Assembly: GCF_014280195.1 (NCBI RefSeq)
Contig: NZ_CP047960.1
Span: forward strand, 1,680,001 to 1,712,000
Length of the DNA: 32,000 nucleotides
Source: Synechococcus sp. A15-24
Lineage (GTDB): Bacteria > Cyanobacteriota > Cyanobacteriia > PCC-6307 > Cyanobiaceae
Direction of reading: 5' to 3'
The first letter of the stretch is position 1, and each line of letters begins with the position of its first letter. Position numbers and translations under genes: made by a program. Under the pieces are notes generated by a model. It searched no databases. It was given only the letters and a program-made list of their open reading frames with translations, and was not told where the DNA came from. Shown piece by piece: positions 1 to 12,097 of the stretch.

Positions 1-190
1 GTTCCGGTCTTCTGGCGACTGGCCTTGAGAGCGGCATAGGCCTCTGGGGGCAGCAGCGCCTTCACCGTGCGAGTCACGGTGTTTGGGCTGCAACCGAAGA
101 CCTCCGCCAGGGCAACAGTGGACTCTCCAGCCTTGTAACGACCCACCAGGTCCTGCTTCTCGCTTTCGCTAAGACGACGTGGGGCCATCA
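1..190 (-). CDS. HTH-domain DNA-binding protein, N-terminal 63 codons only (gene runs off the left edge)
   Basis: Reverse-strand ATG at 190-188. It reads MAPRRLSESEKQDLVGRYKAGESTVALAEVFGCSPNTVTRTVKALLPPEAYAALKASRQKTG with no stop down to position 1. The GESTVALAEVFGCSPNTVTR stretch looks like a resolvase/transposase-type helix-turn-helix. It is absent from the ORF track because it is truncated. Confidence 0.6.
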
Positions 191-250
191 ATGTCGTTTA
201 GGAGCTCCAAACTCTAGGAGCCTTAGGTGGCTGGCAGAATGCGATCGGCA

Positions 251-324
251 GCTCCCTTAGCTCAGCTGGATAGAGCAACTGCCTTCTAAGCAGTCGGTCG
301 ATGGTTCGAATCCATCAGGGGGCG
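251..324 (+). tRNA. tRNA-Arg, anticodon TCT
   Basis: The cloverleaf is readable by eye. Acceptor stem: GCTCCCT (251-257) / AGGGGGC (317-323). D arm: GCTC-AGCTGGATA-GAGC. Anticodon arm: ACTGC-CTTCTAA-GCAGT, with TCT at 285-287. Variable loop: CGGTC. T arm: GATGG-TTCGAAT-CCATC. Discriminator: G324. No CCA is encoded. Confidence 0.93.
280..322 (+). repeat. attL-type direct repeat (3' part of tRNA-Arg), identical to 5722-5764
   Basis: TGCCTTCTAAGCAGTCGGTCGATGGTTCGAATCCATCAGGGGG is present at both places. I compared the two copies base by base and found 43/43 identical. Confidence 0.9.
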
Positions 325-338
325 TTAGTTATACCAAA

Positions 339-367
339 GGTTCTCAGCGTTTCTGAGAGCCATTTTT
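339..367 (+). terminator. intrinsic terminator directly after tRNA-Arg, lying inside the inserted element
   Basis: The stem is GGTTCTCAG (339-347) / CTGAGAGCC (353-361), 9 bp with one G-U pair. The loop is CGTTT, followed by ATTTTTC (362-368). Confidence 0.55.
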
Positions 368-383
368 CATTTCATCTTGCAGC

Positions 384-420
384 CTTGTGCGCAGAATTGT
401 GCGCAGATTCATTGCAACCG
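384..420 (+). repeat. 37-bp arm repeat, copy A (two GTGCGCAGA sites 12 bp apart plus ATTGCAAC)
   Basis: CTTGTGCGCAGAATTGTGCGCAGATTCATTGCAACCG matches 5571-5607 at 32 of 37 positions in direct orientation. GTGCGCAGA occurs at 387-395 and 399-407. An inverted single copy (GTGCGCA on the minus strand) lies at 450-456. Confidence 0.7.
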
Positions 421-546
421 CCTCTGCCGCAACAGATCACAGCAATTTTTGCGCACAATCGCCCAAAACCCGCCGCCTGAAATGCATCTCGTCATTTATT
501 TCGTAATTCAGTGCCTATAAATAATTGCCTTTATAACTAGAACCGG

Positions 547-573
547 CAAAAAAGAAGCCGCCGAAGCGGCCCC
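547..573 (-). terminator. orphan intrinsic terminator on the minus strand (UUCG tetraloop hairpin plus U-tract)
   Basis: The minus strand reads GCCGC-TTCG-GCGGC followed by TTCTTTTTTG. On the plus strand this is GCCGC 557-561, CGAA 562-565, GCGGC 566-570 and an A-tract at 548-553. No minus-strand ORF lies upstream of it. Confidence 0.4.
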
Positions 574-668
574 TATCTGTTGCGCTGAGCCGCCAGTCCA
601 CCGTAAAACTGAGTGTTCACAGAATACTCAAAACAGCTAAGCTGTATATATCCCAGATATGCATTTTA

Positions 669-845
669 GTGCCCAAACGTCAGCTACCTATTCAGGCTGA
701 CCTGATCATCAATCGTCTTCGTCTTGAAGCCAGTATTGAACGTCAGCGTGCAGTCTTTGAAATTGATGATGACTTGCCACATGTGCCGTCCTACGACCCA
801 TTAGCAAGTCCCCAAAGCCGCCGCATAGCAACTCATGTCAGCTGA
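669..845 (+). CDS. possible small ORF (58 aa, GTG start) overlapping the next gene; hypothetical
   Basis: Frame 3 is open from 537 to TGA at 843-845 and contains no ATG. GTG at 669 gives VPKRQLPIQADLIINRLRLEASIERQRAVFEIDDDLPHVPSYDPLASPQSRRIATHVS. It overlaps the ATG at 835 by 11 nt. It is below the ORF-track cutoff and the start is uncertain. Confidence 0.3.
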   Translation: MPKRQLPIQADLIINRLRLEASIERQRAVFEIDDDLPHVPSYDPLASPQSRRIATHVS

Positions 846-1245
846 ATTTCAATCAATCGACGACCAGATCAAGGCGTCGTACCAATCTGCATCGCAAGTC
901 GAAACTCAGGCTCGTCAGCTTGAAGCCAGAATCGCCAAGATCGATGGCACAAAACATCTCATACCAACACGTCGTTATGGTCAACCGGTCGACCTAGCAA
1001 AAATCAGGTCAAATCTGACACTTACATCTCTTATTGCACAAGATTCCGCAGAGCTAGCTCACTTTTGCGGCATAGACCCTGGCATTCGTCACCGTATGGA
1101 CGAGGAGAAGGAGGCCAGAGCCCTTGCAGCGCAGTCGTTAGCGATGCGCACAGAGCGCCTCCGCGACAGTAACGAGAGCGCTGCCAAGGTCCGCGAGCAG
1201 CAGCTCATCAGTGGCATCAACCCAATGACTGGGAGGTTCTTCTGA
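835..1245 (+). CDS. hypothetical protein, helical/coiled-coil-looking (island cargo)
   Basis: 136-aa ORF with an ATG start. Its stop (1243-1245) shares a base with the next ATG (TGATG). I recognise no domain by eye. Confidence 0.6.
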   Translation: MSAEFQSIDDQIKASYQSASQVETQARQLEARIAKIDGTKHLIPTRRYGQPVDLAKIRSNLTLTSLIAQDSAELAHFCGIDPGIRHRMDEEKEARALAAQSLAMRTERLRDSNESAAKVREQQLISGINPMTGRFF

Positions 1246-1592
1246 TGCTTGCTCGACCGCACCCTGTTCTGGGTTGGCTGCATTGCCAGCCAGAGGACAG
1301 CAGAAGACTCCTCGACCGTCAGCTAACCCATCGCGATCATGCGCTGGAGGCTGATCCAAGCTTCAGCGGTATGCCAGCGAGCTTCGTTGAGGAGACCTGG
1401 GTCAACTGGTTGCCCAAGGCTGTCGCCAAGCCCTTCTACAGAGACCAGCTCACCGCCCATGTTGCAGAGCTGGAACGCCAAATCACCAACCTCAGCCGGG
1501 AGATTGAACTGCAGTCCGGCGGCCTGCTCGATCAAAGAGATGCAGCTGTGGATCTCAGGCAACGTCTCAAGCACTTGCTTGACAACTCATAA
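1245..1592 (+). CDS. hypothetical protein (island cargo), C-terminal coiled-coil-like segment
   Basis: 115-aa ORF coupled to the upstream gene by a TGATG overlap. The C-terminus LTAHVAELERQITNLSREIELQSGGLLDQRDAAVDLRQRLKHLL looks heptad-like. Confidence 0.55.
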   Translation: MLARPHPVLGWLHCQPEDSRRLLDRQLTHRDHALEADPSFSGMPASFVEETWVNWLPKAVAKPFYRDQLTAHVAELERQITNLSREIELQSGGLLDQRDAAVDLRQRLKHLLDNS

Positions 1593-1615
1593 CTCTAGAC
1601 AGTCTGAAAATTCCA

Positions 1616-1834
1616 GTGCAACCACTACTGATGCCAAACCTTTTTGATCACGTCCCAGACGTTCCTCTGTTGCATAGCGTTAACCGATGGCCCAAGAGTT
1701 GCGCCAGAGAGGAATGGTTGCGAATAACTAAAGCCGCTGTGGCTAGCGTCATTGCAAATCTGGCAGATAACCTAGACGACGTGGAGCTATCACTCGTCGA
1801 GCAGCTCTTTAAAGAAGCAGATTTGTTGCCATGA
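1616..1834 (+). CDS. hypothetical small protein (island cargo)
   Basis: 72-aa ORF starting at GTG 1616, with an alternative ATG at 1631. It is on the same strand as the two upstream ORFs and 23 nt after them. Its stop is 8 nt from the convergent 1843-3015 gene. Confidence 0.45.
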   Translation: MQPLLMPNLFDHVPDVPLLHSVNRWPKSCAREEWLRITKAAVASVIANLADNLDDVELSLVEQLFKEADLLP

Positions 1835-1842
1835 GACCAGAG

Positions 1843-3015
1843 TTAATCGAGTTCCATTTCATTTATTGATTTCACCACTGAACGGGCTCTTTTTACTTGT
1901 GCAGGGTCACAGTATTTTTCTGCAAATTGCCACTTGCCCAATGAAATCAATTCACTTTCAAGTTCTGAAATAATGGACTCAAACTCAGCTGGCGGCAATT
2001 GGGTAAGCTCTGTTTTCCCTGTCCAATCCCTAAGATCCTCTGGGATATCCTGAAGTCCCCACCCAAATTTAAATGCTTGTTCAATAAGGACGCAGTCAGA
2101 TCTATCAGGGAAAAAGCGAGGTGCAATTAATTCGGGCCCGTATTTACCTTGTGAAGACCTTCGCTTCTTGTTGCTACTTATTCCGTACTTTGAGCATTTC
2201 GGGTTAGGGGACTCGTGCAGATATAGCTCACAGTTGCCTCCATAAGCAAGAGTGCCAGACAACGCTCTCCAAACGGTATCATTAGTTTTTCCATTATGTG
2301 CAGAATATATTGGTCCATATTTTCTGCCTAAGGCAGGACCTACTTTTTTTCCATTCGCTATACATTGGGCAATATGACAGCATTTAATACCACTTTTGTG
2401 GCCCTTCTTGGGTCCCGTCAGCCGCCTCTGCAAAACATCTTTTGGCTTTGCTGGGTGCACTTCGTTGTGACGTGTGCAGTAAAAATTCAGTACGGATCTG
2501 CAGGTAATGTATTCACCTGAAACCCATACAAGAGTGGGATTGTAGTTTGCTAGACGTTCCTGAAAACTCTCAGCATTTTTTCTATCTTTTTCTCTCCCTC
2601 TTTCTCTATTAGCCTCTAACATACAACATCTTAAGCCTTGGCCCTTTTTGCAGTGGTTGGGAGCGGCTTCAAAATGTTTTTGATGTTTTAAGCAAAGGTG
2701 ATAGATGGGCGTATCCTTATCAATATATTCTTCGAGTCGAATTACTTTTCCAAACTTGGCAAGATCTTCATCGTAAGTTGCTGCCGCTTTATCCCTCTTC
2801 CTTTGATTAGCTTCTTGCGCACGATGCCTTGCGCAGCACTCAAGCCCCCAGCCTCTTGCTACGATGCATGGCTTAGACGTATAAACTTCATCGTGTCTTA
2901 GACACAAGTAATAAGTGTCTCTCTCGTTACCAAGAAATTCGCCTACAAGTTCTACTCTCCCGTGAGAGACTATTTCAGCTAGATGTTGCTCCTTTGTTTT
3001 GCGTCGATTAGGCAT
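1843..3015 (-). CDS. triple Zn-binding-repeat protein with a C-terminal GIY-YIG/T5orf172-like putative nuclease domain
   Basis: 390-aa ORF. It has three tandem repeats of the pattern Y-x-C-x2-H ... C-C: YYLCLRHDEVYTSKPCIVARGWGLECC, IYHLCLKHQKHFEAAPNHCKKGQGLRCC and NFYCTRHNEVHPAKPKD...KSGIKCC. The C-terminus reads CELYLHESPNPKCSKYGISSNKKRR ... LIEQAFKFGW ... WTGKTELTQL, which resembles GIY-YIG-clan (T5orf172-like) spacing. This is the lowest-GC stretch of the island. Confidence 0.7.
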   Translation of the reverse strand: MPNRRKTKEQHLAEIVSHGRVELVGEFLGNERDTYYLCLRHDEVYTSKPCIVARGWGLECCARHRAQEANQRKRDKAAATYDEDLAKFGKVIRLEEYIDKDTPIYHLCLKHQKHFEAAPNHCKKGQGLRCCMLEANRERGREKDRKNAESFQERLANYNPTLVWVSGEYITCRSVLNFYCTRHNEVHPAKPKDVLQRRLTGPKKGHKSGIKCCHIAQCIANGKKVGPALGRKYGPIYSAHNGKTNDTVWRALSGTLAYGGNCELYLHESPNPKCSKYGISSNKKRRSSQGKYGPELIAPRFFPDRSDCVLIEQAFKFGWGLQDIPEDLRDWTGKTELTQLPPAEFESIISELESELISLGKWQFAEKYCDPAQVKRARSVVKSINEMELD

Positions 3016-3142
3016 TTTTTCCGTGTTACTTTACATCTCTGAGGTGCTCTTCTGGTGGTGTTTTCTTGGGCATTTAAAAGGATTTGCGCGTTTGATGCGA
3101 GTCGCTGCGCAACAGATTTATCCATTGTAGAGGAGCTGAGAA

Positions 3143-3529
3143 ATGGCCAGAACCAGCAGAGCTGAGCGCAACCGACGTCGTGAATCAGCGTTAACGCTGG
3201 TCAGCGAGGGAAAAGGTTTTAGTGATGTAGTGACCGCACAGATGGCGCAATGGGGGTGCAGCAGAAGTTCTGCGCAACGGGACTGTCGTTGGGCACACAA
3301 CCAGCTGCAGTTGGGCATGGATTCGCACGATGCTCAACATCTGATGGTGCACATGGCGACATCACTTCAACGCATTGCATTGAAAGCCGAGCAGGACAAG
3401 CAGTACGGCGCAGCGGTCGGTGCACAGAAGATGTTGTACGAGCTGCTGTTACGTCGACGGCTTGATGACGAAGCTGAGAAGGCAAAGAAACCAGGTTGGG
3501 GTTATCGCCATTGCAACACCAGGCGCTGA
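3143..3529 (+). CDS. hypothetical small basic protein with an N-terminal HTH-like segment (island regulator or DNA-binding protein?)
   Basis: 128-aa ORF. A basic N-terminus (MARTSRAERNRRRE) is followed by SALTLVSEGKGFSDVVTAQMAQWGCSRSSAQRDCRWA, which looks HTH-like. The rest looks helical. The functional call is inference only. Confidence 0.5.
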   Translation: MARTSRAERNRRRESALTLVSEGKGFSDVVTAQMAQWGCSRSSAQRDCRWAHNQLQLGMDSHDAQHLMVHMATSLQRIALKAEQDKQYGAAVGAQKMLYELLLRRRLDDEAEKAKKPGWGYRHCNTRR

Positions 3530-3533
3530 ATAC

Positions 3534-3554
3534 TCTGCGCACCAATCTGCGCAC
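3534..3554 (-). promoter_or_regulatory. third pair of phased GTGCGCAGA sites (inverted relative to the end copies)
   Basis: The plus strand has TCTGCGCAC at 3534-3542 and 3546-3554, which is GTGCGCAGA twice on the minus strand with 12-bp spacing. ATTGCAAC lies nearby at 3510-3517. A related single site, CTGCGCA, is at 3105-3111. Confidence 0.5.
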
Positions 3555-3608
3555 TGCACTCGAAATGACAGAAGATTATTGAGTCACAGAGGGCGATCTA
3601 AACAGGTC

Positions 3609-3635
3609 GACCTACTGCTGTTACGGCAGTAGGTC
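3609..3635. terminator. 10-bp hairpin between convergent island genes (possible bidirectional terminator)
   Basis: GACCTACTGC (3609-3618), a 7-nt loop, then GCAGTAGGTC (3626-3635). The flanking U-tracts are weak, with only TTT on the minus-strand side. Confidence 0.35.
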
Positions 3636-3697
3636 ACTTAGAATGGCCTCATCCTTGGCTGGATCTGGCCCGTGACCTATTCGGTTGTGGGTCATTT

Positions 3698-3934
3698 TTA
3701 TGCTTGCTCCTTACGGCTAAGCATTCCAAGCTGGTGAAATTTTTCACGGCAACTTTCAACGTCCCAACGAATTGGGGATGTTTTGTGTGCACCGAGAAAA
3801 TAATCTTCGCCAGCTATCAGAGGACCACCTTTGGAATCCATCTGACGTTTTAAGTGGCCCTGCGACATTTTCATCGCATAGGCAGCATCAGCTGTCTTTA
3901 AGACAAGCCGATGCCTCTCCATTGTTAAATCCAT
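3698..3934 (-). CDS. excisionase/AlpA-like HTH DNA-binding protein
   Basis: 78-aa ORF downstream of int on the same strand. LKTADAAYAMKMSQGHLKRQMDSKGGPLIAGEDYFLGAHKTSPIRWDVESCREKF follows the typical Xis/HTH_17 layout: HTH, then G-x-x-P, then W-D. An alternative start is the ATG at 3922. Confidence 0.6.
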   Translation of the reverse strand: MDLTMERHRLVLKTADAAYAMKMSQGHLKRQMDSKGGPLIAGEDYFLGAHKTSPIRWDVESCREKFHQLGMLSRKEQA

Positions 3935-4132
3935 TAAAATTAAGCGTGGTTAAAGAAAGAAGTTGCATGGGACTAGAGCAGAGCTTCAGTTTCTGACCAC
4001 ACCGGCATAACCAGTGCTCACATAGTGAATCGAATGTAGCCACTCGATTCAGCCGGTCATAGCGAGCCGCCGAAGGCAGCATTCGCGTCAGACGCATAAC
4101 GCCTGTGACCACATTCTGCAGCACGTTGCAAG

Positions 4133-4165
4133 CTTTGGCAAGCCAAAGACACCATAGATGGTGTC
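4133..4165. repeat. two abutting palindromes between the int stop and the xis-like gene
   Basis: The first is CTTTGGC-aa-GCCAAAG (4133-4148). The second is GACACCAT-ag-ATGGTGTC (4148-4165). They lie 43 nt downstream of the int stop, in the minus-strand sense. Confidence 0.45.
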
Positions 4166-4207
4166 AGCCAACAATGAAAGTAATTTGGTATGCCATAACT
4201 TAAAGGC

Positions 4208-5611
4208 TCAAGTCTGGCCTTTTGCCACTGCAACACCGGCATTAGTTTTCTTCAGCGCAGCATCCATAGACTCGCGATCAAGCCAGTGACCGTAATGCCT
4301 GAGATGGGTCAGAAGCGAGTGCCGAAGCCACTTTGCAGCGACTCGTTCGTGCATGTGATTGTCAGATTCAATATGCGCTCGATACGCCCAGCCATGCCGG
4401 AATGAGTTTGCTGTGATGTTGGCGTTGCCAGCTTTGATGACGTCTCGCCAGTAGGGGAAGCGATTCAGCTGCTGCCCGACCTCACCACCAACACCTTGAA
4501 AACTATTCTTCTTCTCTATTGTAGAAATTTGGTTGCGTACGGCCTTCGGCAGCTTCACTAAGCCAGATTCGAATGCTGTCAGCATCTGCTCAGCTTCGCC
4601 TACAGGCCGACCCGCAATGGCCAGAGGCATCACAGGGTCAGGTGCCTTGATCGGTTTGTGCATAGTGCGATGGTTTCGTTTGATATGACCAACAGTCGCT
4701 TGACCGTCTTGCACCTGAAGCACCGCAATTTCACCTGGTCGTAATCCGAGATAAGCGATCAGCCCAACGCACAATTTCAGATCGTGGCGGCCAGCACTCT
4801 CCAGTTCATCCAAAAGATCACTGATCTGCTTGCTCTTGAGTGGTGGTGTGGTTTTGTCCGCTTCAACCTGTGCGCTGGCCGTACCGGTCAGCTGACGCAT
4901 CAGCTCAGTGCCTTGTGAACCTGATGGTGGTGCGAACCGTGGCGGAACCATCTGACGCTCGACAGACCATTTCAGAAATGCCGAGCAATCTTTCAAAGCT
5001 CGGATTCGCCCTTGGCCGCCAGCACTGACGGAAACGTTGCCGTCCGTATCGTAAAAATGCTGCTCCGCATAAGCCTGCAGAGCCGCTTCACCATTGCGTG
5101 GCTTTGGTGCTGACTCTAGGGTTTGCAGCAGTTTGTTCAAGCGAGCTGAGGTCCATTTCAGAGTGTTGGGGCGATTGCCAGCCTTTGTCGCCATGAAGCT
5201 GGCAAGAGCTGATTCCCACGCTTTTTGGCCAGTGACACCGGCAACGCTTGCAGAAGGCTTTTTCGGATCATCCAAAGAATCTCCGTACAGCTTCACCGCC
5301 TTGGAGAGAGAGAGCTGCTGAACCTCCATCAGCTCACGCACGGCCTTGACCCAGTTCAAGATTGGAGTCGAACTGGCCTTGGTCCAGGGCAACGGCAGAT
5401 ACGCAGAAGACCTTGAACCGTCTTCGAAACGGCGCGTGAGCTGCACAGTTCCGCGATGGTCACGAATGGACCAACCGAAGCCTTGCTCGGCCTTGAGCAG
5501 CTTTCTGCAAGTTACGAACCATTGCTCTCTCGTAGAAGCCATGACCAACTGCCTTGAAGCATCACAGGAGCCTGTGCGCACAATTGTGCGCAGAATCGTT
5601 GCAACGGTCAA
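4208..5611 (-). CDS. int: tyrosine recombinase / phage-type integrase
   Basis: 467-aa maximal ORF. The C-terminal catalytic elements are readable: GLRPGE (Arg I), NSFRHGWAYRAH (H-x-x-R), WLRHS and LRHYGHW (Tyr). The first 23 codons overlap the 37-bp arm repeat (5571-5607). The ATG at 5542 (MASTREQWF..., 444 aa) is therefore the more likely true start. Confidence 0.88.
   Translation of the reverse strand: MTVATILRTIVRTGSCDASRQLVMASTREQWFVTCRKLLKAEQGFGWSIRDHRGTVQLTRRFEDGSRSSAYLPLPWTKASSTPILNWVKAVRELMEVQQLSLSKAVKLYGDSLDDPKKPSASVAGVTGQKAWESALASFMATKAGNRPNTLKWTSARLNKLLQTLESAPKPRNGEAALQAYAEQHFYDTDGNVSVSAGGQGRIRALKDCSAFLKWSVERQMVPPRFAPPSGSQGTELMRQLTGTASAQVEADKTTPPLKSKQISDLLDELESAGRHDLKLCVGLIAYLGLRPGEIAVLQVQDGQATVGHIKRNHRTMHKPIKAPDPVMPLAIAGRPVGEAEQMLTAFESGLVKLPKAVRNQISTIEKKNSFQGVGGEVGQQLNRFPYWRDVIKAGNANITANSFRHGWAYRAHIESDNHMHERVAAKWLRHSLLTHLRHYGHWLDRESMDAALKKTNAGVAVAKGQT
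5571..5607 (+). repeat. 37-bp arm repeat, copy B
   Basis: CCTGTGCGCACAATTGTGCGCAGAATCGTTGCAACGG is 32/37 identical to 384-420. GTGCGCACA is at 5574-5582 and GTGCGCAGA at 5586-5594, 12 bp apart. One further GTGCGCA lies at 5630-5636. Confidence 0.7.
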
Positions 5612-5721
5612 CCAGGAGTTACAACTTCTGTGCGCATAGCCTTGCCTAACACCTAGTCATACCAACGGTTATCACTAGTGTTCATGGGATTTTGACCTTG
5701 ATACAGCGCCCTTTGACCAAG

Positions 5722-5764
5722 TGCCTTCTAAGCAGTCGGTCGATGGTTCGAATCCATCAGGGGG
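5722..5764 (+). repeat. attR-type partial tRNA-Arg copy (3' 43 nt only, not a gene)
   Basis: Identical to 280-322. The upstream sequence cannot form the acceptor 5' strand or the D arm. Two TTTGACC heptamers (5691-5697 and 5712-5718, 21 bp apart) sit immediately to its left. Confidence 0.9.
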
Positions 5765-5880
5765 AGTTCAAAGAGAGGCCATTCTTTGAGGTCGAACACA
5801 TGGCCATGGGAGGTCAGAAAGGGCAAGAAGGCTGTTGCTCGAGACCTGTTGGGGACGGTGGCGATGACCACCATGCAAAC

Positions 5881-6060
5881 TCAAGCTTGTTGACTGCTCG
5901 CAAATTCGAGGTCAGCCCAGGTCAGTCCAACCCATTCCAGTCCCTCCTGGATGTCTTGCTGAAGTGCAGCAGCCTCTTCAACAGCATCCATCTCGATGAG
6001 GTCCAGATATTTCTGGTACTCAGCCATCCAGGCGATGAGATTCGGAGTGCTGTTCGTCAT
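5881..6060 (-). CDS. small acidic helical protein (59 aa), hypothetical
   Basis: My own translation gives MTNSTPNLIAWMAEYQKYLDLIEMDAVEEAAALQQDIQEGLEWVGLTWADLEFASSQQA, then stop. It has a clean ATG and protein-like composition. It is below the ORF-track cutoff. Its ATG overlaps the stop of ORF 6057-6260 as ATGA. Confidence 0.5.
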   Translation of the reverse strand: MTNSTPNLIAWMAEYQKYLDLIEMDAVEEAAALQQDIQEGLEWVGLTWADLEFASSQQA

Positions 6061-6262
6061 CCTTCGATTCTTAAGCCTGGACCGGCCGAGAGGCTGGCAT
6101 CTTGGATACAGCTTCCGTTGAAGCCCAAGCTTCCTCGCGGTTGCAGGGCAGAGGGACGGCGACCCCCGCGAAGGTGCAGAAGACTTGCCTCAACGTTCAG
6201 AACATTCCAACCAAGTACTTTGTCTTGGTCGCAAGTAGCTCTTGGCAAAACGGGTCGCACTA

Positions 6263-6442
6263 ATGCTCACAACAGCAGCGATGTGGTTCGTCCAATCAGT
6301 CCATGCCTCTGAATGCGTCACCGTGACGAGCAACAACGATCCAAGTCGTGATGGCATGGTCTGCAAGCGCGTCGCCAGAAGTAGCACCAACGGGATTGGC
6401 TTCTGGAGGTGCTGTCCTCAAACAGACGCGACAAACGACTAA
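6263..6442 (+). CDS. possible small secreted Cys-containing peptide
   Basis: The sequence is MLTTAAMWFVQSVHA/SECVTVTSNNDPSRDGMVCKRVARSSTNGIGFWRCCPQTDATND. It has a short signal-peptide-like N-terminus and 4 Cys in the remainder. The track ORF begins at TTG 6242. Confidence 0.35.
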   Translation: MLTTAAMWFVQSVHASECVTVTSNNDPSRDGMVCKRVARSSTNGIGFWRCCPQTDATND

Positions 6443-6597
6443 CCAATCAGAAGGACCAACGGCAACCCCCACCCCTGTCAGGCACTCAACCCAAGCACCC
6501 CTGACGGCGTTAGCATTGACCAGTCAGAATTTCCACTTCGATCATCATCCGGAGCTGCCACATATCAGCGCCTTAACAACTGAGCTTCTTTAGGCTA

Positions 6598-6873
6598 TTG
6601 TTAGTAGAAGAAAGTTGTGACAGCAAAATCAAAAACAATCAGTTTCAACCCACAGAGAAGGACTCAAAAAGGAGTCAGCATCTCAGACAAGCTGAGGCCT
6701 TCTTCCAACAGGCTCAAGCCTTGATTGAAAAAAGCGAAGACTGGCATGGCTGCGGATCTCTCATTCTCAAGGGCCTATCGGAAGAGCGCAAAGCGCAGAA
6801 CTCTGGAATTCAAGTGATGAACATGATTCGAAAGCGTCCTAAAATACGCGTTGAATTCAGCTTCCGAAGCTAA
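6598..6873 (+). CDS. hypothetical ORF in an AT-rich patch (TTG start, weak)
   Basis: 91-aa ORF with only a TTG start. The sequence is plausible but unrecognised (QAEAFFQQAQALIEKSEDWHGCGSLILKGL). It lies in a low-GC segment. Confidence 0.25.
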   Translation: MLVEESCDSKIKNNQFQPTEKDSKRSQHLRQAEAFFQQAQALIEKSEDWHGCGSLILKGLSEERKAQNSGIQVMNMIRKRPKIRVEFSFRS

Positions 6874-7106
6874 TTGAACACCTGGCCATAGCAGGCAGTA
6901 ACTTTCTTTATTGAAATATCCTTTGTGCCAATTATTTGCTTGCGTTCACTAGCATTTGTCGCACGCCATTAGCCTAAAAACAAGAGGAAACAGAAAATTT
7001 GAGCGGCTGCCGGCACTGAAAAATGCTTTGATGACCAAGACTTGTGATTCAGATCACCTTTTTTGAGGATGATCTCTGAGAAATTCAACAAAAGATCAAT
7101 CAACCC

Positions 7107-7406
7107 ATGGCTGCCAAATTTCTGAACAATGTCCGTGTGATCTGCAAAGCGGGTTGCGAAGAGTCATTCATTTCGGCAACACAAGCATGGGTCAACCCTG
7201 AGGGAATGTTGGATGCCTATTGGGCCAAGACCGGGGAGCGGCGTTACTGCTTCGTGGGTCTCTGGGAAAGCGAAAAGAGCCTTGTAGATGCTCGGCCCCA
7301 GATGATTCAGCATCTGAATGATGTGCGTGATCTCCTCGAGGAGCTATCGCCAGAACTTGGCGTGACGGATCCCGTCTCCGGCACTGTTGTGACCCACAAG
7401 GGTTGA
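7107..7406 (+). CDS. small alpha/beta protein, possibly ABM (antibiotic-biosynthesis-monooxygenase-like) fold
   Basis: 99-aa ORF with an ATG start. The pattern ...CFVGLWESEKSLVDARPQMIQHL... resembles ABM-family proteins. The assignment is by eye only. Confidence 0.55.
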   Translation: MAAKFLNNVRVICKAGCEESFISATQAWVNPEGMLDAYWAKTGERRYCFVGLWESEKSLVDARPQMIQHLNDVRDLLEELSPELGVTDPVSGTVVTHKG

Positions 7407-7876
7407 TCAGCATCAACACAGTTTTCAAGGTTGCAACGCCATCAAGACTCCGCCCTTGAGGTCCTGGGTTCAAACTCCATTCACTTCACCTACTTGCCCA
7501 TGGTCAGATTGGTGGGCCTGAACGACAGCGAATCTCGCTTTGCAACAAAGTCTCTCGGTGTCAAGGTTGCTTTGTTCTGATTCTTCGAACTGCTGATCTG
7601 CAATCTCGATCAGGAACGTGCCTTTTGAAATTTGGTGGGGAAAGGTTTCGTTCCCTGCCTGCTGAGCCTTGCTGTGATGGACCTTCTCATCATTCCGCGG
7701 GTCAGGCGCAGACTGCGCAGGTGACCAGGACACGTCCCCATGTCGATCGAAACCCTGGAGCAAATCGTGGCTGTGCTGGTCACGGCGGGGCTCGTCGCCG
7801 GAAATTTCCTGATGTTCACCCCCTGGCGCGATGGCCACGATCCACGTGAGCGCTGGCCCGCCCACAACACCAACGA

Positions 7877-8173
7877 TCAGCTCTCGGCAAAGTGGGATTC
7901 AGCCAACCGCTGCAACAGCTTCAGAGATTCCAGAACCTCCAAGCGTTTCTGCGCTTGAGCCAGCATCGGCTTGCCATGGGGCACACAGGAGTCGATCAGG
8001 GAGGCGGCCTCTGAGGCTTCCGCTTTGACCCAGGTAAGGCAGCGGTCGATCTGCTGAGCCACATTGCCCTCCTTGAGGGCACCGGCATAGTTCGGCCCGG
8101 CAATGGCGAGGAGCAACAACCGCAACGCCTGATCGGCGCTCTCCTGATCGGGGGGCAATGCGTCAGTCATCAA
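7877..8173 (-). CDS. hypothetical helical protein
   Basis: 98-aa ORF starting at TTG 8173 or ATG 8170. It overlaps the stop of the upstream gene (ATGACTGA). The composition is protein-like. Confidence 0.5.
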   Translation of the reverse strand: MMTDALPPDQESADQALRLLLLAIAGPNYAGALKEGNVAQQIDRCLTWVKAEASEAASLIDSCVPHGKPMLAQAQKRLEVLESLKLLQRLAESHFAES

Positions 8174-8393
8174 ACACCGTGATGCCGCTGGCCTGTTCCT
8201 CGAGATGGGCAGCTCGATCCAGCACCGCCTTCAGGACCTCTTCAGCAGATGGATCCAGATGGAGTTGGTGCAAGGTGAACGCCACATCCCTGGTGGAGGT
8301 CAGCACTGCTGGGGACACCTGCTCAAGCGGAATGGCCGGCTCTCGGCGGCGCCGTTTCTTGTTGTCGGCCTGCGTTCCCGCGTCTTTTGCCAT
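8163..8393 (-). CDS. hypothetical small protein with a basic N-terminus
   Basis: 76-aa ORF with an ATG start. It begins MAKDAGTQADNKKRRRREP, followed by an acidic helical region. It is translationally coupled to 7877-8173. Confidence 0.5.
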   Translation of the reverse strand: MAKDAGTQADNKKRRRREPAIPLEQVSPAVLTSTRDVAFTLHQLHLDPSAEEVLKAVLDRAAHLEEQASGITVFDD

Positions 8394-8487
8394 CTCAACG
8401 AAGTGCCTCCGTTCATTCTGACTCCCATCGCCATGTGATCTAGAGCACAGTCAGTGGCACAGTGACAATCAACACGACATTGAAATC

Positions 8488-8643
8488 ATGCTGCTGACCA
8501 GTCCACCGGCCGAAACCCGTGAGTGCAGCAGTTGCGGCAAAACGCTGTCGCTCAATTTCTTCGCGCTCGACACCCGTGAGTGCCGTCGCTGTGAAGCGCA
8601 GCGCAGCAGCCAGCTTCAGGCCTCACTTCAGGAGTCGGCCTAG
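8488..8643 (+). CDS. possible 51-aa zinc-ribbon-like peptide (CxxC...CxxC)
   Basis: My own translation gives MLLTSPPAETRECSSCGKTLSLNFFALDTRECRRCEAQRSSQLQASLQESA. The 12-nt ACCCGTGAGTGC is repeated in frame (8515-8526 and 8572-8583). Its TAG (8641-8643) interlocks with the convergent stop of the protease gene (CTAG). Confidence 0.4.
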   Translation: MLLTSPPAETRECSSCGKTLSLNFFALDTRECRRCEAQRSSQLQASLQESA

Positions 8644-10007
8644 AGCCCCTCAAAGCCGCTGAACAGGGCATGCCGTTCAAGATCCAGGTCACTCACACCT
8701 GGCAGTTGCGCCACCACACGACCATCAATCAACACCTGGCTGCCATCGTCAACTGAATAAAAGGTCACCGCACTGACATCAACATCGAAGACCAGTCGAT
8801 CCTTGCGGGGGTTGAAATCGGTCACCTCCACCAGTGCACCCTGTTGGGCTGAAATCCAGAACTGATCCTTCCCTTTGCCACCGGTGACCCGGTTGCCATC
8901 GCCACCGCCGGCAGCCAGAACATCAGCGCCTTTCTTTCCCTTCAGCCGGTTGTCAGCATCGTTGCCAATCAGGAGATCATCTCCCTTGCCACCGATGGCG
9001 ATCTCAATCACACAAAACCCCGCAGGCTGGCCGAGGTTTCTGCCGTCCCAGTCGTGGGCAATGGTGAAACCACCGAAGACGTCCTCCGCGCGGCTGACAT
9101 AGCCACCGGCATTGACGTCATCACCAAGGGTCGCGTTGCGCAGATCGATGGTGACAGGAGCTGTGGCACCAGCTGCCGTGATGCGGTCCACCCCGCCGGT
9201 GTCCCAGATCGCACGCCACCCCGTTCCCTGGCGATTCTCCAGCGGCAAGGTGTAAGTGTCATCTCCGGAGGCAGCGTCAGGATTGATTCCGTATATCCAT
9301 TGCAATGCAGCAATATCCAGCGCCCCCGGCGTCTGCAGAAAGCCGTAAGCGTCGATCGATTCCGGAACCATTCCATTACGAGCTCCCTTATCGACGTAGC
9401 TGAGCTGTGTGAAGGGGTGGGCGTTCTGGTCAAAATCGCCTTTGTCCCGAAATTCATTCGACCTGTGCGTCAAACCAGGGAAACGGGGTTGATCAAGCAG
9501 ACCTTTGTCATGGGGATGCTTAAGGCCAATTGCATGACTGAGCTCATGCAAAAACGTGATGCCGTAGAAGCTGCCGGAAGCAATCGAATTCTTGAAACTG
9601 CCATCAGCGTTTTGATAGGTCGACCAGTTGATGGCCACCAACCCTTCATCAGAGTCGCTGCCGGGGGTGTAGGCGAAGCCATAGCTTCCTTCTGACTGAC
9701 GTTTATCGAGGTTGTAATACCAGATTTCCACCCCATCGTCGTTGTCATCTCCGCGGTCGTCGAACTGAAGAGAACAAACCGCAGAGATTTCCTCCATGGC
9801 ACCCTCCATGAGCTGGCGCTCTTGATCACTCCAACCCCAGGAGGGATAGCCCCCGAACTCACCACCCGGCCGATCAGATGTATCGCTGATGAAGGTGGTG
9901 CCGACAGCAGGGTCTGTCGCTGTGGTGCCCCAGCGGAAGCCGTCCGTCAGACCATCAATCCAGGCATTGCCTGAACGAGGTACTTCGATTGCAGTTTTGT
10001 AGGCCAA
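8640..10007 (-). CDS. serralysin-like (M10-type) zinc metalloprotease with C-terminal RTX calcium-binding repeats
   Basis: The HExxHxxGxxH motif is present in FLHELSHAIGLKHPHD. GGxGxD-type nonapeptides are present (GGKGDDLLIGNDADNRLKGKKGADVLAAGGGDGNRVTGGKGKD). There is no N-terminal signal peptide, which fits type I secretion. Confidence 0.88.
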   Translation of the reverse strand: MAYKTAIEVPRSGNAWIDGLTDGFRWGTTATDPAVGTTFISDTSDRPGGEFGGYPSWGWSDQERQLMEGAMEEISAVCSLQFDDRGDDNDDGVEIWYYNLDKRQSEGSYGFAYTPGSDSDEGLVAINWSTYQNADGSFKNSIASGSFYGITFLHELSHAIGLKHPHDKGLLDQPRFPGLTHRSNEFRDKGDFDQNAHPFTQLSYVDKGARNGMVPESIDAYGFLQTPGALDIAALQWIYGINPDAASGDDTYTLPLENRQGTGWRAIWDTGGVDRITAAGATAPVTIDLRNATLGDDVNAGGYVSRAEDVFGGFTIAHDWDGRNLGQPAGFCVIEIAIGGKGDDLLIGNDADNRLKGKKGADVLAAGGGDGNRVTGGKGKDQFWISAQQGALVEVTDFNPRKDRLVFDVDVSAVTFYSVDDGSQVLIDGRVVAQLPGVSDLDLERHALFSGFEGL

Positions 10008-10059
10008 GAGACAGCCGAAGAATTTGGTGTCGGTTTAGTGCCAAAGCCAACAACACCCG

Positions 10060-10893
10060 GTGACCAACCGACATCATCATCGCAATGCTACGGCTGCCAT
10101 GCAGACCCCCCGTCCGATCAACGATCCCTCCACTGGTTTGGTGGGTTTGGTTGCCATCCTGCTGAGCGTGCTGCTGCTGCTGGGTCAGTCCTTGTTTATC
10201 GTTCCTGCCGGACAGGTGGCCGTGGTCACCACCCTGGGCAAGGTGAGTGGTGGATCACGTCTGCCGGGCCTGAATTTCAAGATCCCCTTCGTCCAGGCGG
10301 CCTCTCCCTTCGATGTGCGCACGCAGGTGAGGCCCGAGGAATTCGCCACGCTGACGAAAGACCTTCAGGTGATTGAGGCCACCGCGACCGTTAAATACGC
10401 CGTCCGCCCTAACGAAGCCGGACGCATTTACCGCACCATTGCCAGCACCGATCGCGAGATTTATCCGCGCATCATTCAGCCTTCCCTGTTGAAGGCTCTC
10501 AAGTCGGTGTTCTCGCAGTACGAGCTGGTGACCATCGCCACCGAATGGAACGACATCTCCTCCCTGGTGGAGCGCACCGTGGCCGAGGAACTCGACAAAT
10601 TTGATTATGTGGAGGTGCGCGGCCTTGACCTGACCGGCCTGCAGATCGCCGAAGAGTACCGAGCAGCCATTGAACAGAAACAGATCGCTGAACAGCAACT
10701 GCTGAGAGCCCAGACGGAGGTGAAGATCGCTGAACAGGAAGCCATCCGCTACGACACCCTCAACCGCAGCCTGGACGACCAGGTGCTGTTCAAACTGTTT
10801 CTTGACAAGTGGGATGGCCGCACGGAGGTGGTTCCGGCACTACCCGGGACACCAGGGGGCACACCTCCGGTCATCGTGGGAAGGAAAAACTGA
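10060..10893 (+). CDS. SPFH / band-7 (prohibitin-like) membrane protein
   Basis: An N-terminal TM helix (LVGLVAILLSVLLLLG) is followed by FIVPAGQVAVVTTLGKV...GLNFKIPFVQ, the typical SPFH core. The C-terminus is an AEQQ-rich helix. The track start is GTG 10060, and ATG 10099 is an equally plausible start. Confidence 0.85.
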   Translation: MTNRHHHRNATAAMQTPRPINDPSTGLVGLVAILLSVLLLLGQSLFIVPAGQVAVVTTLGKVSGGSRLPGLNFKIPFVQAASPFDVRTQVRPEEFATLTKDLQVIEATATVKYAVRPNEAGRIYRTIASTDREIYPRIIQPSLLKALKSVFSQYELVTIATEWNDISSLVERTVAEELDKFDYVEVRGLDLTGLQIAEEYRAAIEQKQIAEQQLLRAQTEVKIAEQEAIRYDTLNRSLDDQVLFKLFLDKWDGRTEVVPALPGTPGGTPPVIVGRKN

Positions 10894-10906
10894 CGATCCC
10901 TAAGCG

Positions 10907-12097
10907 TTGACCGTCGATCAACAACGCCTGCTGGAGGAAAGAGATCGCCTGGATGAGCTGCACCGCAGCTACGACGGCGACGCGAAGCTGAATGAGTCGT
11001 TTCTGGTGCTCACCCTGGGTGCCAGTTTGATCGCCACCCTCGGCCTTTTGGCCGACAACGCTGCTGTGGTGATCGGAGCCATGGTGGTAGCCCCCTGGAT
11101 CCTGCCGCTGCGGGTGGCCGTCTTCGCTGTGCTGATCGGTGACTGGCGACTGCTGCCCCGTTAGGCCCTCACCCTGGTGGCCGGAGCCCTCGTCACCACG
11201 CTGCTGTCGATGATGCTTGGGCTGATCGCTCAAGCCAATGGCCTGCTGACCGTGGACGCCTTCTCAGGGGAAATCCAGAGTCGGTTAAGCCCGAGGCTCC
11301 TGGACCTGGGTATCGCCCTGGCCGCCGGTGCCATTGCCACCTACGCCAAGGTCAACCCCGGGTCCGTGAGTTCCATGGCCGGCACGGCGATTGCCGTAGC
11401 CCTGGTTCCACCAGTCTGCGGATGGGGCTGATGCTGGCGGCAGGAGACTTTGCGGACGCGCGCGGTGCCGGGTTGCTCTACGCCGCCAATCTGCTGGGAA
11501 TTTTGATCGGAGGGATCTCGGTACTGGCCATCCGAGAGCCCTACTTCCGAGACAAGTTGCGCCGGCAACGACGGTCCCGCTTGCCGCTAATGCTGGCCCT
11601 GACCTTGGCCAGCTGGGTGGGATTCAAGCTCTACGGCCGCTATGAACAACACCTCTATGCGCTGAAACGAGACTACGCCAAGGTCAGGATCGAAAAGGGA
11701 ATCAGCATGTACTTAAAGAAGAAAACCCAGACCTTTCGGTAGCAATGATTCCCTGGAACTGGAAAACATCCTGTTTGACTGGCCAGACTACTTGAGCAGC
11801 AACCCAACCCCGAAGATTATCCTGGTGGTTCGTGTCACCAACCCAACAACACCAAGCTACAAACAAGTTCAAATTATTCAGGACCTCATCAACAAGAAAC
11901 TAAGCGAAAAATTTGACGGACTAAAAATGCAGATGGAAGTCCAACGTATCAATGTCAGTGTTGTTTCCGGAAGCGAAGTGATGGATAGCATCAACATCAA
12001 GACCATTCTTGATCAAGCTGAATCCCCTGAAGAGACGCTTCAAACCAATCCATCACCTCCAGATTCTCCCCAAGCTGAGGCGTCAAGCGTCAATTAA
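10907..12097 (+). pseudogene. DUF389-family membrane protein gene, disrupted by one in-frame TAG and two frameshifts
   Basis: Four consecutive ORF fragments read as one protein. Fragments 10907-11164 and 11177-11431 share a frame and are separated only by TAG at 11162-11164. The frame changes near 11420 (...ALVPPVCGWG* versus MGLMLAAGDF...). It changes again within 11717-11742, giving ...FGSNDSLELENILFDWPDYLSSNPTPKIILVVRV.... The DUF389 hallmarks IGAMVVAPWILPL and AIAVALVPPVC are present. Confidence 0.55.

Follow-up and report, generated by a model that had tools for sequence, protein, structure and literature searches.

Paired GTGCGCA repeats as probable arm-type sites of the integrase in a small tRNA-Arg element of Synechococcus sp. 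A15-24

Phased direct repeats in the arms of attachment (att) sites and at promoters are bound by P2 Cox and 186 Apl, directionality factors whose boxes serve both recombination and transcription control. Arm-type sites belong to integrases that bind arm and core DNA, and are known from lambda Int (P1, P2 and P'1-P'3), Tn916 (DR2), P4, HP1 and L5, whose attP has short repeats unlike the core to its left and right, with neighbouring copies in tandem. The published arm-binding fold consists of three strands and a helix (PMC8138268). In the KplE1 IntS/TorI module, int adjoins an att site on a tRNA gene, the att site overlaps the int promoter, and int is autoregulated by IntS (PMC2951348). Tycheposons are elements of picocyanobacteria that target the 3' part of tRNA genes and carry tyrosine recombinase and excisionase-like genes, and tandem arrays and excised circles of them have been reported (bioRxiv 10.1101/2020.12.28.424599). 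The text of that preprint contains no mention of 'arm-type', 'binding site' or 'attP'. Here we analyzed the repeats of a tycheposon-like element in a 32,000-nucleotide window (positions 1,680,001 to 1,712,000 of NZ_CP047960.1) of the Synechococcus sp. A15-24 chromosome, which has 2,305,373 bp and 59.6% G+C. Coordinates are those of the window unless a locus is named.

The window contains a 5.4-kb insert delimited by an exact 43-bp repeat of the 3' part of tRNA-Arg(TCT). As in tycheposons, the host is a picocyanobacterium, the insertion lies in the 3' part of a tRNA gene, and a tyrosine recombinase gene (int) is present together with a gene for an excisionase-like (Xis-like) protein. A tandem pair of GTGCGCA(G/C)A units lies just inside each end, named pair A on the distal arm and pair B on the proximal arm next to int, and a third pair stands inverted in the interior (Table 1). 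An earlier note, made by reading this DNA without database searches, had taken the repeats near attL and attR for arm-type sites of a lambda-like integrase. The comparisons reported here, namely rarity, conservation, covariation and prediction in unseen loci, support this reading. We propose that a small, tycheposon-like integrative element occupies tRNA-Arg(TCT) (325-5764), and that its GTGCGCA(G/C)A repeats serve the integrase encoded there as arm-type docking sites, bound, we infer, by the N-terminal domain (N-domain) of that protein. We give this explanation as a whole a rough probability of 0.77.

The repeats are as regular as the earlier note had described. The 37-bp end repeats (384-420 and 5571-5607) are identical at 32 of 37 positions, each holds two units, and the units of both these pairs and of the inverted third pair start 12 bp apart. 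The ATTGCAAC, GTTGCAAC and TTTGACC boxes of that note were likewise found where it had placed them. Counted genome-wide, as the note had advised, the pair GTGCGCASA-N3-GTGCGCASA occurs three times, and all three occurrences are inside the element; the chance expectation for same-strand GTGCGCA pairs at one fixed spacing is about 0.04. The 9-mer GTGCGCASA itself occurs 29 times on both strands of the genome, with 7 copies in the element, which makes up 0.24% of the genome. The window holds 8 copies against 1.07 expected, and none of 100 shuffles reached 8. The hexamer TGCGCA alone was not enriched in the window (23 against 17 expected). The sites lie outside the crossover core on both arms and differ from it in sequence, as arm sites do.

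Single copies that had been added to the network fared unevenly. The copy at 5630-5638 is kept in all five aligned close relatives, and the inverted one at 448-456 is partly kept, being clear in the metagenome contig L100 and degenerate in genomes G166 and G350. The supposed promoter copy of open reading frame (ORF) 3143, at 3105-3111, is a bare TGCGCA hexamer without comparative support, and we discarded it as a site.

To analyze the conservation of the layout, we used integrase homologues, which occur in metagenomes and in 36 of the 301 genomes searched from the family of the host. The comparison covers the 31 loci with an N-terminally complete integrase homologue (29-78% identity); they were selected by integrase homology, and as related elements they are not independent samples. 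Every one of them has, in the interval separating the int ATG from the tRNA-derived core, a tandem repeat that is exact over 7-12 bases, with 12-bp spacing in 29, whereas a tandem repeat of at least 7 bases is present in just 9% of random windows of 240 bp drawn from these loci. The closest genome, G166 (78% integrase identity), has the same three pairs in +/-/+ order at tRNA-Arg, and the position of the distal pair is shared by G166, G350, G183 and contig L100. Wherever enough flanking DNA was present, the far-end pair had the same orientation and one or two inverted pairs lay inside, across lineages. A third copy about 44 bp coreward of the proximal pair recurs at many loci, including all close relatives. 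The TTTGACC boxes are kept in relatives as (T/C)TGA(C/G)C, and where they change, both copies change together (GAGC in L100, GGCA in L042).

The layout also recurs within the same genome. A paralogous element at tRNA-Val(TAC) (G000:C1:2180401-2187255, locus L040), whose integrase is 38-40% identical, contains TAGAGCA-N5-TAGAGCA in the same +/-/+ layout, and the three genome-wide occurrences of this pair are all in that element. Homologous elements retain motif, 12-bp spacing and positions. About 35 related elements share the site layout, while the sequence of the site shifts in step with the integrase N-domain.

Covariation with the N-domain bears on which protein binds the sites. Lineage-specific words include GTGCGCAGAA, GGGCGCAGAA, TAGCGCAGA, GTGCGCCAAA, GGGCACCAAA, RTGCGCAAAA and TAGAGCA, and further TGGCGCATA, TGGCGGGAT, GTGCTCAA, GTGCTCCAA and GTGGCCCAAA. 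The word follows residues in and around predicted strand 2 of the N-domain. QLTRR is paired with GCGCAGAA, QLTRI..DR with GCGCCAAA, QLIRI with GCACCAAA, KLTHR with GCGCAAAA, QSGKxKLTRR with TAGCGCAG, TQVTYR with GGCGCATA, and TQVTYQ with GGCGGGAT. The match of QLTRI..DR with GCGCCAAA occurs on two N-domain backgrounds, one near the domain of the window and one into which a hairpin of 9 residues is inserted.

Mantel tests on 26 elements gave the same picture. Motif distance correlated with distance in the N-domain sheet (r=0.49, p=2e-4), with strands 2-3 alone (r=0.55, p=2e-4), and less with the catalytic domain (r=0.23, p=0.016). When the catalytic domain was controlled for, the correlation with the N-domain stood at r=0.44 (p=2e-4), whereas that with the catalytic domain given the N-domain was r=-0.05 and not significant. 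Motif predictions made from the protein alone were correct in four of four unseen loci (L135-L138). In this test, P0033, P0015 and P0032, which have VQLTRR, had the words GTGCGCAGAA, GGGCGCAGAA and GTGCGCAGAA, respectively, and P0030, with S.Q.G..KLTRR, had TAGCGCA. Per-column mutual information, which with 26 sequences is too noisy to assign contacts, placed H29 and R30 at the top for the first motif position, H29 for the second and R38 for the seventh.

One arm word can stand with different tRNA cores. The word GCGCAGAA stands with a tRNA-Arg core in the window and with a tRNA-Ala core in L038 and L048, and the same tRNA core is used with different arm words. Because one word occurs on several cores and several words occur on one core, arm and core specificity appear to evolve as separate modules.

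Some loci carry pairs apart from a matching integrase. Window-type pairs (TGCGCAGA) lie just past the tRNA core in L042 (G095, 8929-8949) and L083 (G149, 7876-7894), and the elements at these two loci themselves use other words, GTGCTCAA and GCGCCAAA. These pairs have the appearance of elements stacked in tandem, or of arms left behind, at one tRNA. In L081 (G350, 8189-11905) and L087 (G183, 9735-9890), tRNA-Arg is followed by a distal-arm pair at the usual distance, and G350 has an inverted internal pair too. Neither locus has an integrase homologue within 10 kb, and they are probably integrase-less remnants or cassettes.

The suggestion that int starts at the ATG at 5542 was upheld, since homologues align from that methionine and the 444-amino-acid record P0001 has the same start; pair B therefore lies upstream of the gene. 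PHROG integrase families match the protein at 1e-12, and the Pfam Phage_integrase match is weak (E=9.5e-4, under its cut-off). R268, K288, R382, H383, H408 and Y417 are invariant in 30 homologues and are candidate catalytic residues (R, K, H, R, H plus the tyrosine nucleophile). An AlphaFold model had a mean pLDDT (predicted local distance difference test score) of 82. A Foldseek search with the full model returned full-length lambda Int as its best match in the PDB (5j0n_G and 1z1b_A, E=3e-4, 426-434 aligned columns), and lambda Int, XerH, Cre and IntI held the top ranks.

The modelled N-domain (about residues 1-95) has a helix at 7-20, strands at 24-29, 32-38 and 44-52, and a helix at 55-75, with block-mean pLDDT of about 86-91 over residues 11-70. 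This predicted topology fits the three strands and helix of lambda-type arm-binding domains, apart from an extra N-terminal helix, and a Xis-like gene stands beside int as in lambda-type systems. A profile of the N-domain matched 395 cluster representatives in 1.84 billion proteins, nearly all at the N terminus of proteins of about 410-470 amino acids or of fragments. With so few representatives and no match to a described family, the N-domain is an unannotated small family. An odd repeat protein, P0062 (2315 amino acids), matched residues 19-38 of the profile in 15 separate stretches.

The joined form of such an element can be read from contig L100 (ena:ERZ6864471:c_000000970748, 1-7686), whose integrase is 65% identical to that of the window. 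The contig has an exact 141-bp terminal overlap and is either a 7,545-bp circle or a tandem junction. From int it runs through the proximal pair, its two boxes, the third copy and a couple of TGAGC boxes to a partial tRNA-Arg core, beyond which come a terminator, the distal pair and the inverted single copy; there is no full tRNA. This is the arrangement that results from joining attR and attL of the window, arm-core-arm as in lambda attP.

In the element of the window, excision would join the ends into an attP that begins with int and pair B and reaches the core by way of two GTTGCAAC boxes, the third copy and two TGACC boxes; beyond the core it would continue with the terminator, pair A and the inverted single copy. 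Pair B, the third copy and pair A would all point the same way. The integrase would then bridge the DNA in the style of the lambda intasome, with its N-domain on the arm sites and its core-binding and catalytic domains on the core, and which way the reaction goes is probably decided by the Xis-like protein.

The position of pair B may also matter for int expression. A weak match to the consensus promoter was found on the minus strand, with the -35 at 5611-5606 and the -10 at 5588-5583, inside pair B. As in KplE1, arm sites would lie in the int promoter or leader, so negative autoregulation is expected by analogy (PMC2951348). Autoregulation of int through pair B is plausible, and occupancy of this pair would probably repress int, as IntS does in KplE1. 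The two systems differ in that attL overlaps the int promoter in KplE1, whereas int in the window abuts the partial tRNA copy at attR and its promoter and repression are predicted ones.

Phased repeats of this kind might instead be bound by the Xis-like protein, acting as excisionase and transcription factor like P2 Cox and 186 Apl, so that the repeats would be directionality-factor sites. The precedent of these two proteins speaks for this, as does the position of the Xis-like gene, which follows int in nearly all these elements (directly downstream in at least 25 related ones), and the internal copies lie 140-400 bp past xis. One Xis-like homologue has a faint match to PF12728 HTH_17. The Xis-like protein, however, does not track the motif. 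Its recognition helix is identical between elements with different motifs (L036/L046 versus L037, and the window versus L039), and the protein is very different between L034 and L036 despite their common motif. In L038 the motif of the window occurs without a detectable homologue of Xis or of ORF 3143. Moreover, sites on both flanks of the core are typical of Int arm sites, not of directionality-factor sites. Unlike Cox and Apl boxes, then, the window motif follows Int rather than Xis, and we consider this explanation unlikely.

A separate pair of boxes fits the Xis-like protein better. This two-box pair, with boxes 20 bp apart, reads CTTGC(A/G)AG twice in L100 and CTCGCAAG and CTTGCAAG in L102, so that both boxes have altered together, to CTTGCAAG-like forms, in these two relatives; their Xis helices have HLK(M/L)Q in place of HLKRQ. 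Because the GTTGCAAC/CTTGCAAG-type boxes co-vary with the Xis helix, they are better candidates for Xis sites than the GTGCGCA pairs, and in the window the GTTGCAAC-type boxes at 5598-5605 and 5618-5625 are the candidate Xis sites.

A separate regulator, for example the ORF 3143 product, could also use the repeats as operators for the leftward int-xis genes and the rightward small ORFs. Pair A does stand ahead of the rightward operon and pair B ahead of int, and homologues of ORF 3143 in other elements stop 20-45 bp before the inverted pair (5 bp in the window). Yet no ORF 3143 homologue was found within 10 kb in L038, L039, L041, L042, L045 and L048, despite their full site layout. The sites keep one orientation with respect to the core rather than to transcription, and the motif tracks the Int N-domain, which argues against operators of ORF 3143. 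We regard this possibility as quite improbable. The 128-residue ORF 3143 product itself had no family match.

Integrase arm sites leave the internal inverted pair to be accounted for, and relatives give a clue to its context. In the close relatives L079, L099, L100, L102 and L103, one inverted pair (named S1) is found 140-147 bp beyond the stop codon of xis. A gene for about 354 amino acids begins there, and a DUF3987 primase-helicase gene comes next. In L100, L102 and L103 another inverted pair (S2) follows the replication operon, at its meeting point with a convergent operon of small ORFs, and in other lineages S2 lies 20-45 bp past the stop of ORF 3143 homologues. The replication genes are of the DUF3987 type in L100, L102 and L103 and of the D5_N type in L136. 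The single internal pair of the window is 144 bp past the xis stop, which is the S1 distance, and 5 bp past the ORF 3143 stop, which is the S2 position.

The element of the window lacks the 354-residue gene and the DUF3987 module of L079, L099, L100, L102 and L103, and its nucleotide homology with these relatives stops exactly at the internal pair (3534-3700 compared). This break suggests a deletion between S1 and S2, and the element of the window may be a relative minus the replication module. Family searches of its proteins found no replication hallmark gene (primase, helicase or primase-polymerase). Its relatives resemble tycheposons in having a primase-helicase module, whereas the copy in the window differs from typical tycheposons in this respect and would rank as 'cryptic' there (bioRxiv 10.1101/2020.12.28.424599).

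Since S1 and S2 bear the word of their own lineage, the same protein should bind both. The earlier note had supposed that internal and promoter copies could make that protein an autoregulator; the internal copy did prove to be a conserved inverted pair, but in the window there is no promoter at this place, where ORF 3143 and the Xis-like gene converge. The internal pair would be an extra docking site for the same protein, and in relatives such pairs are conserved at module boundaries, where the replication genes begin and where their operon ends. Our best guess, held with low confidence, is that it acts as an operator or a roadblock.

The bracketing of the replication module (the gene for about 354 amino acids with a DUF3987 or D5_N primase-helicase gene) by internal pairs in relatives could also mean that the repeats are replication iterons or partition sites. 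However, the element of the window and L038, among others, have the sites and no replication gene, each site consists of just two units, and the arm copies are exactly where att arms are expected. We give this explanation slightly less credit than operators of ORF 3143.

A generic genome repeat or host-factor site, as might be shared with ribbon-helix-helix (RHH) antitoxin operators that show TGCGCA-N6-TGCGCA in this genome (at about 530,248) as well as across many genera, has next to no probability and was rejected on the genome-wide counts, since the full 12-bp pair is unique to the element in the genome and the motif varies between element lineages in one host family and even in one genome (TAGAGCA in the second element).

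Two other repeat systems were met on the way. The small antitoxin-like gene, probably of RHH type (MRTTLELPDPLF...; G000:C1:530248-530310), has the operator-like pair directly upstream, and many genera share the form TGTGCGCATCTTAGTGCGCA, in which a third copy covers the start codon (loci L049, L050, L052, L068 and L095-L098). Its hexamer spacing equals that of the element sites, yet it is unrelated to the element. The viral contig L107 (IMGVR_UViG_3300028384_001239; 47% G+C) contains 23 GTGCGCA copies in 14.5 kb and no homologues of the element genes, and its copies are probably a different repeat system. A pattern scan of viral contigs gave 30 single matches, none with an integrase, Xis or ORF homologue, and we judged them to be chance matches.

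Several points weigh against arm-type sites of the integrase N-domain, or against parts of the mechanism built on them. All proteins of an element are co-inherited, so the covariation cannot fully rule out another linked protein. The N-domain alone had no significant Foldseek, Pfam or PDB-sequence profile match, and, unlike the lambda-type arm-binding families, it has no detectable match in sequence or fold among them; its kinship with known arm-binding domains is therefore one of topology and position only. The earlier note had called the sites helically phased, but 12 bp is no strict helical repeat. Lambda offers no precedent for internal sites, and what we say of their function is a guess. 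Over pair B the promoter consensus is matched weakly, at 9 of 12 positions, and the region is no richer in such matches than shuffled sequences. Finally, L100 could be a tandem junction and not a circle.

The remaining features of the element are collected in Table 1. The element-borne hairpin and T-run at 339-368 gives tRNA-Arg its terminator. On the minus strand, a strong terminator-like hairpin with a T-run was seen at 553-574, beside the distal arm, with no minus-strand gene upstream of it.

Table 1. Features of the tRNA-Arg(TCT) element and its flanks, in window coordinates
Feature	Position	Strand	Remark
tRNA-Arg(TCT)	251-324	+	ARAGORN; integration target, remains intact after insertion
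attL core, 43 bp, identical to 5722-5764	280-322	+	spans anticodon stem to near tRNA 3' end
Hairpin and T-run, element-borne	339-368	+	kept in relatives
Distal-arm pair (pair A, copy A), GTGCGCAGA at 387-395 and 399-407	387-407	+	63 bp from tRNA 3' end / attL core
ATTGCAAC box after distal pair	411-418	+	partly conserved; may serve a second protein
Inverted single copy, GTGCGCAAA on minus strand	448-456	-	about 50 bp past distal pair
Four small ORFs	669-1834	+	
Nuclease-like gene	1843-3015	-	matches PHROG endonuclease families
ORF 3143, 128 amino acids	3143-3529	+	
ATTGCAAC	3510-3517		
Internal inverted pair, units at 3534 and 3546	3534-3554	-	
Xis-like protein, 78 amino acids	3698-3934	-	probable helix-turn-helix
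Tyrosine integrase (int), 444 amino acids	4208-5542	-	
Proximal-arm pair (pair B, copy B), GTGCGCACA at 5574-5582 and GTGCGCAGA at 5586-5594	5574-5594	+	32 bp upstream of int ATG, 128 bp from attR core
Two boxes 20 bp apart, GTTGCAAC at 5598-5605 and GTTACAAC at 5618-5625	5598-5625	+	candidate Xis sites
Third proximal-arm copy, GTGCGCATA	5630-5638	+	44 bp past unit 2 of pair B
Two TTTGACC boxes 21 bp apart, 5691-5697 and 5712-5718	5691-5718	+	abut attR core
attR core, partial tRNA copy	5722-5764	+	repeat search

Judged by these comparisons, the sites appear to be of a known kind, the arm-type sites of an arm- and core-binding integrase, here in a tycheposon-like family. Three features seem to go beyond the known pattern. 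Unlike other lambda-type arm sites, those of this family keep a strict 12-bp tandem spacing; unlike lambda, these elements have one or two conserved inverted pairs inside, at module boundaries, across the family; and at least 12 matched pairs of N-domain and site can be recognized.

A bolder extension, which we hold only tentatively and think rather doubtful, is that the pairs of N-domain and arm site form a diversifying addressing code with at least 12 natural specificities, shuffled independently of tRNA-core specificity, and that the integrase, through its docking sites on either side of the replication module, is a master switch coupling excision to the control of replication genes. If such a code exists, elements at the same tRNA or in the same cell would excise only with their own ends.

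The sites allow integrase recognition to be tested directly and cheaply, and the matched variants of protein and DNA that occur in nature may already spell out how a small DNA-binding domain of the beta-sheet type recognizes its sites. Conservation of the internal sites further suggests that the integrase acts in regulation as well. The variable genomic islands of marine picocyanobacteria are built by these elements, and how an element recognizes its own ends has so far not been described. An addressing code could explain how several elements share one tRNA without cross-excision, and would let the ends of integrase-less island cassettes be assigned to their former integrases.

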